Source of the DNA: Candidatus Omnitrophota bacterium
Lineage (GTDB): Bacteria > Omnitrophota > Gorgyraeia > Gygaellales > Profunditerraquicolaceae
Reading direction: 5' to 3'
Assembly (NCBI GenBank): GCA_030693145.1
Contig: JAUYBI010000041.1
Location: forward strand, 10,228 to 74,227
Length of the DNA stretch: 64,000 nucleotides
In this document: piece after piece, positions 42,001-54,000 of the stretch
Layout of the letters: every line of letters starts with the position of its first letter
Position numbering within the stretch: the stretch's first letter is position 1
Program-made: the position numbers and the translations under genes
Notes under the pieces: generated by a model
The model's database searches: none
Seen by the model: the letters and a program-made list of their open reading frames with translations, nothing else
What the model was told of the DNA's origin: nothing

Positions 42001-45000
42001 TCCAAGTCGCGCTTGACTTTGTGGAAGCAGAACCGGCGTTAAAGGTTGCCCGAGAGGCTTATTTAGGCGGTGTAGATTTTATTGAGGCAGGTACACCTTT
42101 GATTAAAGCATTAGGCATGTCTGTGGTAAAAGAGGCAAAGCAGAATAATCCCGGTAGATTGATCGTAGTTGATATGAAGCCAATGGACACAGGTAAGCTT
42201 GAGATGGAAATAGCGATTAAAGCAGGAGCAGACATTGTAATTATCCCTGGCATTGCGCCGTTATCCACCTTAAAGGAATGTGTTGAGGCAGCACAAACAG
42301 CAGAGGCAGGATTTGATATCCTAAGAAAATTATTGATAGAAACTGGGCAAGAATATGATATTCGTCTTGATTCGTTTTTTGCTGTCGACAATATGGATGG
42401 AGGTATTAATAAGCGCATTAAAGGTTTGATATGGAAATCACTTTTAGACCACGGGGAAGTTTACAACATTGCTAAGAAACATTATGGGGAAACCAATAAA
42501 AAGATATTGATTATCAATGCGGATACGCATGATGATAAAAGCAAAACTAATTCTCCGAATGAAAGCAGTTGGGCTTGGTATTTAGAACAGGAAGATATTG
42601 CCAGGGTAGTTCATATGCCTTCTTATTATAATCAAGATAAAGGGAATAGGAATGAAAATAATTGGCGTACTCCGGAAATAGAAAAAGAAATTTTGTTAGC
42701 GGCAAAAGAAGCGAAGGAAAATGAATGGGGGATTTGGCTCACCATAGATTTTGATTTTTTTTCTTTTAAAAAGGTAGAGGTTGAATATGGACAGGTGTAT
42801 GCGGATCATACATTCAGTACAGAGGTTATGTACGATATGGATGAAAATGAAGTATCAAAAGAATTAACAGCGATGGTGAAATTTTTTAATGATAATAAGA
42901 TAATTATTAGTAGAATTATTCCTTGTGAATCAAGGAGATATTTAGCGAGCGCAGTTGTGAAAACTCCTGTGGGGTTTGATTATTATGAATGGGATGTTTA
43001 TGAGAGATATCCTAAGATTGAAAAAGGGATAGATCTTTATTGTGAGATGATTAGAAAAAATATTATTTCGTTTTTTGGTAAGATGTCAACGCTTAAAAAT
43101 TATGAGAAAAAAGAAGATGAACCGTGTCTTTCTGATGGAGGTATTAATCATGAAAAAGAATTTTCGATATTTGATAAAGGGACTGAAGGTCCTAGGTATG
43201 TTGGCGAAGATGGCGGAAGTAATCAAAAGTTAGAAGTCAAAGTTACTCCTTTCGAGGCGATTGACATACTTGTAAAACACGTAGATGGGACTGTCTTTAA
43301 AGGCATAAATTTTGAAGATGCCTACAAGTTATTCGGCATGATCTTAGAAACAATTCAGGCAGGAGGAGAAATTCATTACATCGCGGCAGGCAGAAGCGGC
43401 CAGGCAGCGAGTATTTTTGCAATTTTACTTAATGAATACGCAAGAGACGCCTTTGGCAAGCCGGTAGTTATCCATAGGATAAGCGCGGACGATTATTTCC
43501 CGCCGGTTAAAAAGGATGGGTTAGTTATAGGAATCAGCGGCTCAGGTTCAACGCCGTTTGTGAATGACAACTTGGCACTGGCAAAGGAATTAGGGGCAAA
43601 GATCGTAGTTATTACCGCAAAACCGCAGATTTGGCAGAAGAAAACAGAAAAGCATCCTGACGTAAACGATGTTGTCCCGGATTATTTAAATATTCCTGAT
43701 GTTTGGGCAAAAGCGGTGTTTAGCAGGATAGGAAAAAAGGCAGATGTGAAGATTATGTATACAAGAGGCGGATTACGGCTGGCAGAGCATAATTTATTGA
43801 TTGAGAGCTTAAAAGAAGCTTACAAAGGCCTGGCTAACGCTCCGCCGGAAATGGTGATACCTCTGGTTATTTCTTATTATTTCCCCCGCCCCGCCAGCGT
43901 TAACAGCGAATTAAAAATCAACCGTAATTTACTTAATACCGCTAACCTTGCCTGGAAAGCAAGCTCTGCCTTAAAACTTGCTCTTCGTAAAGAAATATTC
44001 CCGCATGAGTTGGAGCACTGGATTCAAGGTGATCTTACTACTGAAAGAGAGATACTCGCTAAATCATCAAATAATTTTAAGTCCCAGCCTGAAGTTTTAA
44101 GGGCATTGTTGTATCTTTATAATAATAAGGTAAACGGGTTTGTTTTGGATAAGCAGTGGAGGGCGAATCTAGAATTAATCAGCGCGCGAAAAGCACGCAA
44201 ATCCTTACAAGACGGCGGGGAGAGGCGAAGCAGCCTTGCTCAACGTTTAACCGCTGTTACCAAAAGAGACCCGCTAGAGGTTATTCTTTGTTATTATGCG
44301 GCAAATTCAAGATGGGGTTCAATAAGACGGCTTTCTTCAGATGGCCGGATACCTTTAATCTTTACAAAGATTAAAGGTTGGTTTGGTTCGCGATTAGCGC
44401 GGCTCATTTCAATATTTTTTTGGCTTAGTTCAGCGTCATTCTCGACAATAAACACAATCAAAGCATCCGTTGGAATTCTTTCTTCCAAATCCGGGTGGTT
44501 AATAATATATTTAGAAAACTCATGGTTTATTTCGAGATTCTTTTCAAATAATTCTTTTTCAGTCATTTCGCGCCTCCTTCAAATTACCTCTTACCATAAC
44601 CTCAAGTTGTATGACAAAACTTATGATATCATTCTTCAAGCGGCTATGCGAATATCGCCTTCTCGTATCTGGAATCAGTTTGGCAACATAGGAAATATTC
44701 TGAGGCTGCATAATCGAAGTATAGCTAACTTTTTTAATAATGTCAAGTTTGATGAAGGTAGGATAAAAATAAGGCTTGAGAAAAAAGACGGAGCGGTTGC
44801 TCAAACTAAGGAACTTGACGGGGGGGAGATCCTGGGAGTAGATAATAATCTCCGCCTACCTTTATATGACTTTTCGCGGGCCGAGCCGGAAAAATGGTCA
44901 ATGCGTACCGCCAGAGTCCCGTGGGTAGGCGGCGCAAAATTAGTAATAAAATTTGCCTGGCAGAATAGGCCTCGCGAAGAACAAATTATAATGCTGGAAA

Positions 45001-51000: not shown

Positions 51001-54000
51001 AATACGATATATCCCAAGGGAGCTTAAATAAGGCAAGCGATGAGCTTGAGGGTATATCCGCGGCTAAAGATATAGAGTCCATAGAAATTTTCTACCGGAA
51101 TATAACTCAAGGGGTTTTTGAAGCGGCAAGGAATAAAGCGCCGCCTTTTGGAAATACCGCCAATGACGGCGGCACGGTTGGGCTTACTTTTTATTCTTTG
51201 CGAAGACGATATTTATCAGCATCTACGATAATGAGAGCCTTTTTAAATGCGGCAGGTTTGAGTTCTTCAAGCAGTTTGATTAAAGTATCGTGGATTTCTT
51301 CTTCTAATCTATGGCGAAACCGTAGAAGCACGATGCCATGGTGCAATTTGGGCGGATATAATTTGATATTACTAAAGTCCGTATCTTCAGTAACCAGAAT
51401 CCTCTTTTTCTTTATCGACCATTTAAGAATCTCAAAGTCTGACTTGCCACCGAGGGTTGCTTCTTTAGCAGTAATTACGGAATATCCTAATTTGCGCAAT
51501 AAATTTATTGTGGGTAAGCCTAAACATTCATCAGCTAAGAATTTTATTCTGCTGCGCTTATCTGACAAGGTGGACGTCCTCGTTCTTTACGAGTTGATTG
51601 GCGTATTCTATGCAAGCCTTGATGTCTTCTTTACTAATTTGCGGGAAATAATCGGTGATAATTTGGTCGAAAGTGAGCCCGTCTTCGAGCAGGTCAAGTA
51701 TTTGCCAGACCATAATGCGGGTTTTGCGGATAGCGGGTTTTCCGTGGCAAATTTTCATATCTACGGTTATACGATCAAACATTTTGCATACCTCCTTAAC
51801 AATGGAAATAAGTCTAGCATAGGAATATCACAAAGTCAAGGCGTCAAAAGAGGCGGCGGTAATGTTTCCCGGGATGTCACCCTTGGCCGCTCAACGCGCT
51901 TTGACGGCGGCGCGGCGAAGAAAAAAGCAAAACTGCCCCGGATTTTATCCGCGTTAGCTGCAGCGCCTGTTTTGTTGACCTTAGTTTCAATTTGGCTTTT
52001 TTATAAGGGTGAATTAGGTCTATCAATTATGATTCTTTTTACTTCACCAGTATTCTCTATTGTTTATCTAATAACGTATAAAGCTTATACTGAAAAAGCA
52101 ATTCTCGAAGCTTTTACTGAGGCTCTTATTGAAGCTGTTATTTTAGCCTTACGCGACCCTAAAGTGATGGTTTATTTACATCCTGAAGTTTCTCTTGGAA
52201 AAGATGCCCAAGAGATGATGGTGCAGATAGGCGGATCCGGCGAGAATAACAAAATTTTGCAGTTAGGCCAAACAGAATTTTCGTTCCAAGATAATTCGTT
52301 AAAGATATTTAAAATACATATTGTTCCTCCGGAGTCAGATATCTGGGGACCGATTATTGGTGTTGGTAACGTTTTAGTAGAAATTTGTTTAACAACCGCT
52401 GAATTAGAGGAGATTAATAAGAGGTTAAGAGCGCAGAGCAGTAATGCCGTAAAAAGCCTTGACGGCGGCAGAAAAATAGAACCATCCCTAATTATTACAC
52501 AAACTACTAAGCAGTCTCCTGCTAAAAGAACCTCACAGCAATTAATACTAAACCTTTTTAGTTTAGAAAGTAAACTTAGTGATTCTAACTGGACTGTCCG
52601 CCGTGCAGCAGCTGGTGTCTTGGGCCCGGTGTATGCGGCACTGATAAAAGAAGGAAAAGAAGTTTCTTTAACTCTCTTAGAAAGTAAACTTAATGAAGGC
52701 GGCGAGGATCTTAGCATTGCGGCAGCTAGTGCTCTTGGCCCGGTGTATGCGGCACTGGTAGAAAAAGGAAAAATGTCTTTGTCCGTTCTGGAAAATAAGT
52801 GGACCGACCCTAACGAGTATGTCCGTCTTGCAACATCTAATGCCGTAGACTTGGTGTATCTGGCGTTGATGAAAGAAGAGAAAGAAGTTTCCTTATCCTA
52901 CTTAGAAAGTAAGCTTACCAACCCTGACTGGTCTATCCGCAGCCGGACAACAGCTAATACCTTAGGTCTGGCGTATACGGCCTTGATAAAAGAAGGCAAA
53001 GAAGTATCCTTATCCGTCTTAGAAAGTAAACTCGATGACCCGAGCGAGTATGCCCGCCGTGCAGTAGCTGATGCCTTAAGCCTAGCGTATGCGGCGCGAA
53101 TAGAAAAAGGAGAGATTTTAAATGAGGATTATAATAAATATACGTTATGGACAAAAAGCAATTTACCTTATCAAGGTAAATTAATTAAGCAATACCTTGT
53201 TGCTTCCGATGCGCAGGGATTTATTTCCAGCCTTAAGCGTAAAGCAGAAAACGCAATTAACCGCGGCTTTGATTATAAGAAGGAAAAAGATTTGTGGCTT
53301 GCTTATCTGGGCATAAGGACTGCCGGTATTAATATAACCTATGAGGAATTTAAGCAAAGGATGAGCAAAATCGCCGAATTTGATGGCAAACACCCAGGGT
53401 ATTTTAAGAAGCTTTTTACCAAAGCAGCCAAACCGATAGTAATTGAGCTTAGCGCGGAAGGAGTCCGCCAGATGGATACTTCTAGCGTGGACCTAAAAGT
53501 ATTCAGTCAGAATCTCGCTGAACTTGATTATGTGCGCCTGGGGATAGACAGCTTTAGCTGGATGGATGAGGACTTTCAGCAAAGCAAGGTTTTTAACCTG
53601 CGTAACCTCTATTATCTTCTTAAGCGCCATCAGGCGCAGGAGGCAGGCATAGTAAAAGAAAGAGAACATTTTAGGTGCGAGTTCCCTCAGGAAGAAGCGA
53701 TGAGGCGAGAGCTTCTAGCTAACAGGAAAAGTTTCTACAAAATAGTGTTTTCTTTGGCAAAAGACAGGTTAGGTGACCGTAGTATAGGCCCAAAATGCCT
53801 TCTTCTTATGCGAGATTTGATCATAAGCGATATCATGCTTGATGATGGTCTCTTAAGTCAGATGCGTTCTTCTGATTCTGAAACCAAGCTTTCTGCCTTT
53901 AAGAATTTCTATGAAGACTATAAGAACCATCTGCCTAATTCCTTAGGATTACGGGTAGCAAATATTAAAGGCTTACGGAAATGTTTTGAGGATTTTTCTT

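Follow-up and report, generated by a model that had tools for sequence, protein, structure and literature searches.

The stretch analysed here, 64,000 nt of contig JAUYBI010000041.1 from a Candidatus Omnitrophota bacterium (assembly GCA_030693145.1, positions 10,228 to 74,227; hereafter the window), is spanned by a single giant open reading frame (ORF), and on its opposite strand lie five two-gene cassettes of toxin–antitoxin (TA) or TA-like character. The giant ORF occupies frame 3 of the plus strand (3–64000), is open past both window ends and comprises more than 21,332 codons; it contains no stop over 64,000 nt, whereas each of the five other frames contains 712–2,294. Its modules are delimited by the tripeptide Asp-Gly-Gly (DGG), which occurs 53 times in the window against 5.8 expected (for example, at 24108, 29484 and 44211). 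The cassettes are all encoded on the minus strand and form one 7.7-kb island at 44.2–51.9 kb. Each is bracketed by a pair of DGG linkers, and all ten boundary coordinates named in an earlier sequence-only reading of this DNA (the original prediction) exist.

Cassettes 4 and 5 have both genes intact. Cassette 4 (module 50334–50924, linkers at 50334 and 50925) consists of hicB (50591–50818; Pfam E = 1.5e-11) and hicA (50361–50594; E = 5.7e-22), which overlap by 4 nt; the HicA match (PF07927) covers profile positions 1–58 of 58, and the HicB match (PF15919) covers positions 3–58 of 123 only. Cassette 5 (module 51165–51902, linkers at 51165 and 51903) pairs DUF433, a COG2442-type antitoxin (51558–51782; E = 4.5e-22), with DUF5615, a PIN-like toxin (51191–51568; E = 6.2e-23), with an 11-nt overlap. 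Cassette 3 (module 47952–48737, linkers at 47952 and 48738) carries DUF2283 (48231–48440; E = 1.1e-17) and a leaderless DUF4258 toxin pseudogene (48444–48671) with one TAA nonsense codon at 48621–48623; the homologous cassette at locus L006 is intact and has Glu at this position. Cassette 2 (module 45537–45986, linkers at 45537 and 45987) retains hicB (45701–45904, scanned as ORF 45701–45925; E = 3.5e-8) and a hicA remnant of the final ~28 codons only (45633–45719). The two-gene architecture of type II TA systems, with recognised toxin and antitoxin domains, is therefore found in cassettes 4 and 5, in cassette 3 with a toxin pseudogene and in cassette 2 with a toxin remnant. These minus-strand genes, placed between 44294 and 51782 by the original prediction, are real (Pfam E from 3.5e-8 to 6.2e-23), and the decayed state that it ascribed to the HicA remnant and the DUF4258 pseudogene was borne out.

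Cassette 1 (module 44211–44816, linkers at 44211 and 44817) differs from the single-gene unit originally described. The DUF5647 gene is present (44294–44566; E = 7.8e-22), but a truncated, leaderless, DUF7718-like ORF lies upstream of it (44559–44711). DUF7718 and DUF5647 recur elsewhere as a conserved overlapping gene pair. Cassette 1 thus appears to have the architecture of a TA pair, and its TA identity is only putative, as neither domain belongs to a recognised toxin or antitoxin family. Outside the cassettes, 95 further minus-strand stop-to-stop ORFs of at least 70 aa gave no Pfam match; the cassettes are therefore the sole recognisable antisense genes in the window. An NCBIfam scan of the eight TA proteins yielded no matches, and an exact-protein look-up of the window HicA returned no record.

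Each cassette has its own predicted promoter, of sigma-70 type. The pattern TTGACW-N17-TANNNT, scanned over the whole window on both strands, has six matches against 1.42 expected, and the five on the minus strand are exactly those directly upstream of the cassettes: TTGACA-17-TATACT (44746–44718) for cassette 1, TTGACT-17-TATATT (45953–45925) for cassette 2, TTGACT-17-TACGGT (48707–48679) for cassette 3, TTGACT-17-TATTTT (50867–50839) for cassette 4 and TTGACT-17-TAGACT (51839–51811) for cassette 5. The claim that every cassette is preceded by TTGAC(T/A), a 17-nt spacer and a -10-like hexamer thus holds for all five, with the reservation that the -10 hexamer of cassette 3, TACGGT, is poor. 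A GGAGG-type Shine–Dalgarno (SD) site precedes the first gene of cassettes 2 (GGGAGGTGAT), 4 (TAGGAGGT) and 5 (AAGGAGGT), in agreement with the strong SD proposed wherever a leader exists. Cassettes 1 and 3 are leaderless, with starts 6–7 nt past the -10 hexamer, and the L006 homologue of cassette 3 is likewise leaderless.

The host frame stays open through every cassette, as had been claimed: each module contains no stop in frame 3 and 9–26 stops in the two other plus frames. The proposed shuffling of synonymous codons was carried out with the giant ORF's own codon usage at 39% GC, and it gave stop-free probabilities of 0.0025–0.11 per gene, with a product of 2.3e-13, which excludes chance. 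The genes in codon register with the host frame, namely those for DUF2283, HicA and DUF433, contain no TTA, CTA or TCA codons, and TTA is the commonest leucine codon of the giant ORF (39% of Leu). Register can shift between genomes. At L006, hicB and hicA lie 3 nt apart, which places hicB in the host register, and it has no TTA, CTA or TCA; in the window, the 4-nt overlap puts hicB one phase off, and it contains three such codons and is still stop-free in the host phase. Among the genes examined in the window and L006, the host-phase antisense frame alone is open in 11 of 11. Selection therefore keeps open whichever antisense frame the host uses, and the cassettes are not simply pre-adapted. 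Furthermore, locus L001, from an independent ENA assembly ~98% identical to the window, contains a strain variant of cassette 5 with its flanks, in which the frame is open despite a 3-nt indel.

Selection is detected on both overlapping frames, although it acts differently on each. In comparisons of the window with L002, L005 and L006, differences at TA codon positions 1/2/3 numbered, for example, 10/2/39 for hicA and 10/4/40 for hicB. Since substitutions cluster at third positions of the TA codons, it is the TA proteins whose reading is constrained: they are under purifying selection and are 75–88% identical, whereas the host reading is only 46–57% identical (47–57% across hicA), shows no visible amino acid constraint and is merely kept open. 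This agrees with the earlier view that the plus-strand "protein" in the island simply reads the TA genes in antisense. Between the window and other loci, similarity at the DNA level is limited to the segment from the -35 box through the last stop, with unrelated flanks, and delimits a conserved unit of 50361–50870 for hicBA and 48235–48711 for DUF4258–DUF2283. The -35, -10 and SD signals within this unit are kept between genomes amid unrelated adjacent DNA. The spacing of these two cassettes is 173 nt in L006 versus 1.65 kb in the window.

The arrangement recurs in other genomes. The plus-strand translation of 50142–52460 has a single database relative, protein P0001, which matches through the antisense HicBA reading only; for the host modules of this segment outside the cassette, the same database yielded no relatives. 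When 1.84 billion cluster representatives were searched exhaustively by HMMER with the 168-aa antisense HicBA peptide, 82 clusters matched, approximately 11 of which are long ORFs (867–6,657 aa) with host sequence on both sides. Embedded-cassette hosts include P0003, with SecA_DEAD, methyltransferase and PRK domains, and P0012, with PGM; P0029 is a contig-truncated ORF whose HicBA match lies near the N-terminal end, and the protein sequence of P0027 includes two HicBA antisense read-throughs and one DUF433/DUF5615 read-through. For two long-ORF hosts, the DNA was checked: at L004, hicA and hicB are intact, and L003 combines an intact hicB with a hicA interrupted by a nonsense codon. Homologues of cassette 4 were found in L002–L011, DUF4258–DUF2283 is embedded in L006, and DUF7718–DUF5647 is embedded in L059, L060 and L063, with frames open across the whole locus. 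All four cassette families thus recur in the same arrangement in long ORFs elsewhere.

When the HicA alignment was scanned against one genome per species, 26 loci were recovered. In nine, hicA is embedded in a frame that stays open antisense to it for 4.4 kb or more and usually leaves both ends of the 8.2-kb locus; 17 are free-standing, and none of the 26 is embedded in a long ORF on the same strand. The nine embedded loci all belong to Omnitrophota, "Planctomycetales" or unclassified metagenome-assembled genomes (MAGs). The codon comparison with free-standing TA genes that the original prediction had suggested showed a difference: TTA, CTA and TCA are absent from hicA in nine of nine embedded loci, whereas 12 of the 17 free-standing genes have at least one, including all nine with a locus GC of 0.50 or less.

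Several observations accompany this survey. At L005 (3777–4231; an Omnitrophota MAG), hicBA is free-standing, its HicA is 86% identical to that of the window, and it lies 370 nt beyond the point where a long minus-strand ORF stops. Exactly one stop interrupts the antisense frame, and the operon may have been recently released from an embedded position. Proteins P0019 and P0021 were rejected as embedded cases, since they come from GC-rich genomes in which the hicBA antisense is open by chance and the start codon is probably over-extended; gene callers have apparently fused the hicBA antisense to the N-terminus of a downstream secreted protein, a likely annotation artefact of a kind to be excluded from any survey. 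P0028 and P0066 were set aside with them as probable start over-extensions in GC-rich DNA or low-complexity matches. In L002, an IS21 element (IstA/IstB; 593–2684) lies immediately upstream of the cassette-bearing ORF, and in L003, a tyrosine recombinase gene (7813–8706) runs convergent with the 2,327-aa host ORF, the end of which is 5 nt away.

Some copies are carried by inteins. At L002 (3401–6004; P0001), a longer ORF has an intein that holds an intact hicB–hicA pair in antisense and reads C-VTADTLL, then TINH, then the cassette and finally VYDIEVEGTHNFIGNNIFAHN-T. The intein model PF14890 covers P0001 residues 155–477, around an insert at 268–434. In P0005, an antisense HicBA cassette also lies within an intein, with a nearly identical intein end and a different host protein. 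The P0001 intein, situated in a linker region of a multi-module protein, is apparently active, as it has Cys1, TINH and a terminal HN with Thr at +1. The same intein has a further in-frame insertion at residues ~88–135 (L002 ~3640–3800), bounded by a direct repeat encoding DVVAQFIGQ twice, which looks like a small repetitive element tolerated in the intein. The window's own cassettes do not lie in inteins: no Hint or intein domain was found at E ≤ 1e-3, and the cassette flanks lack Cys1 or HN. Recurrence across genomes and in inteins makes the finding stronger than originally stated, and the copies found in inteins point to TA operons as a new kind of intein cargo.

The linkers that bracket the cassettes have properties of their own. 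The octamer GACGGCGG occurs in 30 copies, all in frame 3 and none on the minus strand, and GAC makes up 68% of the Asp codons in the linker motif versus 23% overall, a preference for a rare codon. The distance from a DGG linker to the -35 box is 30–70 nt and that from the last stop to the linker is 17–270 nt, with no DGG within any cassette. Longer repeats also surround the cassettes. An extended 31-nt plus-strand linker (family D7; TTGRCCGYTCARCGCGCYTTGACGGCGG), encoding (L/F)(G/D)RSARLDGG, lies at 50314–50344, with other copies at 48718–48748, 50905–50935, 51883–51913 and 54577–54607; four of the five copies adjoin TA cassettes, and extended linkers flank cassettes 3–5. An 89-nt plus-strand repeat of linker plus flank (D12; 45473–45561), 78% identical to 43145–43233, precedes cassette 2 and ends five codons past the DGG that opens its module. 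Other cassette hosts have their own repeated motifs between modules and on both sides of cassettes, namely RAEVR, HPELR, ARLAE, ARSELR and SSPV/SSPLE; these lineage-specific linkers were seen in the host ORFs of L003, L004, L006, L007, L011 and L017. At the DNA level, these linkers are GC-rich and strongly conserved, with 12–15-mers such as CGCGCCGAGGTGCGG for RAEVR, AGCTCGCCGGTG for SSPV, GCCTCGCCGGTG for ASPV and GCGCGGATGGCG for ARMA.

Two kinds of constraint on the linkers can be read from these data. One-mismatch in-frame variants of GACGGCGG number 13 over 4 possible synonymous changes versus 11 over 20 non-synonymous ones, an approximately six-fold enrichment per possible variant, and the L001 strain variant has a linker GAC replaced by GAT; both argue that Asp-Gly-Gly is constrained at the protein level. 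A DNA-level motif, in turn, is suggested by the preference for rare codons and by a strand bias that is absolute. In three lineages, the native N-terminus of PGI begins 3–6 residues after the local linker. The linkers are therefore candidate protein-level processing sites, candidate DNA-level recombination or architecture motifs, or both; the C39-type (Gly-Gly-cleaving) peptidase-like domains of Archaeovorins are in keeping with the processing reading. A role as internal translation starts or SD sites was rejected, given that no consistent start codon follows. A metagenome scan with the extended linker TCARCGCGCYTTGACGGYGG returned 28 matches, all of them single chance matches in DNA of 55–73% GC. 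A dip in purine content was tried as a detector of antisense coding and discarded as unspecific, as PGI and membrane modules dip too. Several DGG pairs stand only 15–93 nt apart with almost nothing between them (25908/25923, 45987/46029, 50064/50142, 12525/12618, 37800/37866 and 43134/43209), and they may be empty or vacated module slots.

Taken together, we consider it likely that autonomous type II TA (or TA-like) operons settled, in antisense orientation, at positions between the modules of an Omnitrophota-type giant multi-enzyme gene. A stop introduced into the host frame would cost tens of kilobases of downstream giant protein or cause mRNA polarity. Only stop-free insertions or variants would survive, so that the TA genes would become recoded, with those in register avoiding TTA, CTA and TCA. 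The antisense orientation would be tolerated because the complements of the TA stops (TTA, TCA and CTA) are sense codons for the host. From their own promoters, the operons would be transcribed head-on to the giant gene and act as addiction modules. The cassettes would be at least selfish passengers, and they would probably penalise deletion of a long, repeat-rich gene region, as has been proposed for integron TA cassettes; such a stabilising, addiction-type effect on the giant gene would be a reasonable consequence. Toxins would be lost by decay over time, as has happened in two of the five cassettes. Peptides read through in antisense would be junk spacers between DGG linkers, which are possible processing sites, or, in the inteins found elsewhere, would be spliced out.

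Several points weigh against this colonisation model. The toxins of cassettes 2 and 3 are dead, so neither can be an addiction module now. In cassette 1 the upstream gene is truncated, and a literature search on DUF5647 or DUF7718 found nothing relevant. The cassette promoters and SD sites are consensus matches only. The conserved unit contains neither a recombinase nor terminal repeats, and a genome scan with module 46029–47951 for orthologous loci or empty sites found no relative. DGG cleavage is a conjecture: no peptidase domain occurs in the window, and the linkers of other lineages lack Gly-Gly.

A rather unlikely alternative, which spells out the view behind the original prediction, holds that the giant ORF is a translatable cassette array, in which GC-rich linkers (GACGGCGG) are recombination sites where modules enter, leave and are shuffled, and the TA cassettes were recruited as stabilisers. 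The DNA conservation of the linkers, with their rare codons and 30 in-frame and no minus-strand copies of the octamer, fits this idea, as do the GC-rich boundary 12–15-mers of other lineages, the bracketing of every cassette by linkers and the 31–89-nt linker repeats flanking cassettes 2–5. Additionally, the cassettes keep their identity as discrete units although their flanks are unrelated, their arrangement in L006 is not that of the window, and a tyrosine recombinase gene adjoins the L003 host ORF. However, when boundary repeats were folded as single-stranded DNA on both strands in a search for attC-like hairpins, z lay between -0.2 and +1.1 in six of eight folds, and the single stable boundary fold consists of three short unrelated hairpins. 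Nor did Pfam detect an integrase or recombinase domain in the 64-kb window, whether in the plus frame or among 95 minus-strand ORFs; the giant gene ends outside this window. The conserved unit also lacks the linker. That TA cassettes and enzymes belong to one modular system, as in the original prediction, is no more than plausible, given that linkers flank both kinds of module. Finally, the synonymous-enriched octamer variants and the GAC-to-GAT change point to protein-level constraint, and a linker 3–6 residues ahead of the PGI N-terminus in three lineages fits a processing site. A broader version seems unlikely to us: the giant ORFs of Omnitrophota and their relatives would be translatable arrays whose linkers (GACGGCGG/DGG, CGCGCCGAGGTGCGG/RAEVR, AGCTCGCCGGTG/SSPV and GCGCGGATGGCG/ARMA) are both recombination joints and processing sites, stabilised by antisense TA operons that are sometimes intein-borne. 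If true, it would amount to an integron-analogous gene-capture system inside a single reading frame.

It is quite improbable that the cassettes are dead, decaying relics on which only the host's need for an open frame acts. Such a reading could draw on the deleted toxin of cassette 2, the nonsense codon in that of cassette 3, the truncated upstream gene of cassette 1 and the nonsense codon in the L003 hicA. Nevertheless, substitutions are strongly biased to TA third positions, the -35, -10 and SD signals are kept from genome to genome next to unrelated DNA, and intact pairs persist in L002, L004 and L006; Pfam matches were, moreover, called full length in cassettes 4 and 5 and for all antitoxins, with the caveat that the HicB profile is matched at 3–58 of 123. 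Very improbable is the idea that the promoters matter more than the proteins, with head-on transcription or antisense RNA tuning or gating expression of the distal giant gene. Five strong consensus promoters oppose that gene within 7.7 kb, no others occur on that strand in 64 kb, and embedded copies are always antisense; yet purifying selection acts on the TA proteins and not merely on promoters, and the orientation is already accounted for by the stop-codon constraint. Chance, misassembly or an altered genetic code can hardly be entertained: although GC-rich genomes can have the hicBA antisense open by chance (P0019 and P0021), the probability here is ~2e-13 at 39% GC with 9–26 stops per cassette in the other frames, the independent assembly L001 reproduces cassette 5 and the arrangement occurs in many genomes, and the TA genes end at TAA or TGA where the Pfam models predict, so both codons function as stops here, and the open frame is not explained by reassignment of the code.

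The host ORF itself translates into a concatenation of complete enzymes recognised by Pfam. Sugar-phosphate modules comprise two copies of PGI, phosphoglucomutase, hexokinase, 6-phosphogluconate dehydrogenase and 6-phosphogluconolactonase. B12/radical SAM, DegT aminotransferase, APS kinase, CofD and several methyltransferases are also encoded, and further domains include histidine phosphatase, amidohydrolase, OMP decarboxylase, SIS, PEMT and HEAT repeats. The closest PGI match (78% identity) comes from an Omnitrophica MAG. On length and domain content, the ORF matches the Archaeovorin-type multi-enzyme giants of Omnitrophota.

Module duplication has left traces along the giant ORF. The PGI modules at 24108–25922 and 29484–31307, 5.4 kb apart, share DNA blocks that are 75–88% identical (families D1, D3, D4, D8 and D11) and represent an internal duplication of a whole enzyme module plus linker. 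Repeats at 12519–12620 and 15753–15854 (91%) and at 8513–8812 and 17069–17368 (70%) connect the PHP-domain modules 7461–10388 and 15759–18626, which indicates module duplication inside the giant ORF. Just downstream of the TA island, a HEAT-repeat module contains four tandem copies of ~114 nt that are 61–70% identical (52566–53034); a minus-strand ORF of 181 aa (52172–52717) without a Pfam match overlaps these repeats. Rfam and tRNA scans gave no matches, and a terminator scan gave a count below chance.

In full-text literature searches, no account of antisense TA operons within giant genes or inteins came up. The component families are known; the arrangement, the phase-specific recoding and the recurrence appear to be undescribed. 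This would be nature's clearest example of whole operons, with promoters of their own, lying antisense in a translated bacterial gene, with a dual constraint that is readable in codon choice and replicated across lineages. Parts of "giant proteins" would then be the reverse reading of other genes, which affects annotation, the splitting of such proteins for structure prediction and their interpretation. The cassettes would mark inter-module positions that tolerate junk and, together with the linkers, offer candidate processing sites, the absence of which West-Roberts et al. noted. They also offer a model for the protection of very long, repeat-rich genes from deletion.

Among known systems, the host most resembles the Archaeovorin-type giants of Omnitrophota, which contain PGI, PGM and related domains (West-Roberts et al. 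2023, bioRxiv 10.1101/2023.11.21.568195; bioRxiv 10.64898/2026.06.07.730766); hexokinase-rich multi-enzyme giants are described in the same literature. The window ORF shares PGI, PGM, hexokinase, methyltransferases and HEAT/TPR repeats with them, and SecA_DEAD is carried by related cassette-bearing hosts such as P0003. SecA DEAD-like, transmembrane-rich and C39-type peptidase-like features were not seen by Pfam in the internal 64 kb covered here, the ORF ends lying outside the window. Archaeovorins have C39-type (Gly-Gly-cleaving) peptidase-like domains, and their cleavage points have not been established (West-Roberts et al. 2023). The difference is that neither giant-gene paper mentions antisense genes, TA genes within ORFs or linker motifs.

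HicAB and PIN-COG2442 (VapBC-type) are type II TA families (Makarova et al. 2009, PMC2701414; vapBC10, PMC3834315). Cassettes 4 and 5 share their domain content and two-gene architecture; they differ in genomic location, and with 75 aa the HicB of cassette 4 is a short form whose match is confined to the N-terminal part of the model.

The likeness to chromosomal integrons lies in small self-promoted TA operons interspersed among unrelated modules of a very long array. In sedentary chromosomal integrons, such as the Vibrio superintegron, self-promoted TA cassettes occur among the cargo and plausibly penalise array loss. Here, in contrast, a single translated ORF forms the array, its cassettes run strictly antisense and are recoded, the conserved unit has no recombination site, and neither attC sites nor IntI were found in the window. 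The integron parallel drawn in the original prediction thus stands as an analogy of possible function only, with z near zero in six of eight boundary folds and no integrase in the window.

Inteins carry homing endonucleases, and group I introns may hold antisense-encoded homing endonuclease genes. The cassettes resemble these in being selfish cargo nested so that host function survives, and in L002/P0001 and P0005, the antisense HicBA occupies the endonuclease position between the splicing blocks. The cargo, however, is an opposite-strand TA operon and not an in-frame endonuclease, and the five cassettes of the window lie outside inteins.

Nested antisense overlapping genes are known in bacteria and phages, and as in those cases, both strands are open here and both are under some selection. 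The present case differs in that whole bicistronic operons are nested with their promoters, the constraint on the host strand is solely the avoidance of stops, and four cassette families have the same arrangement across lineages.

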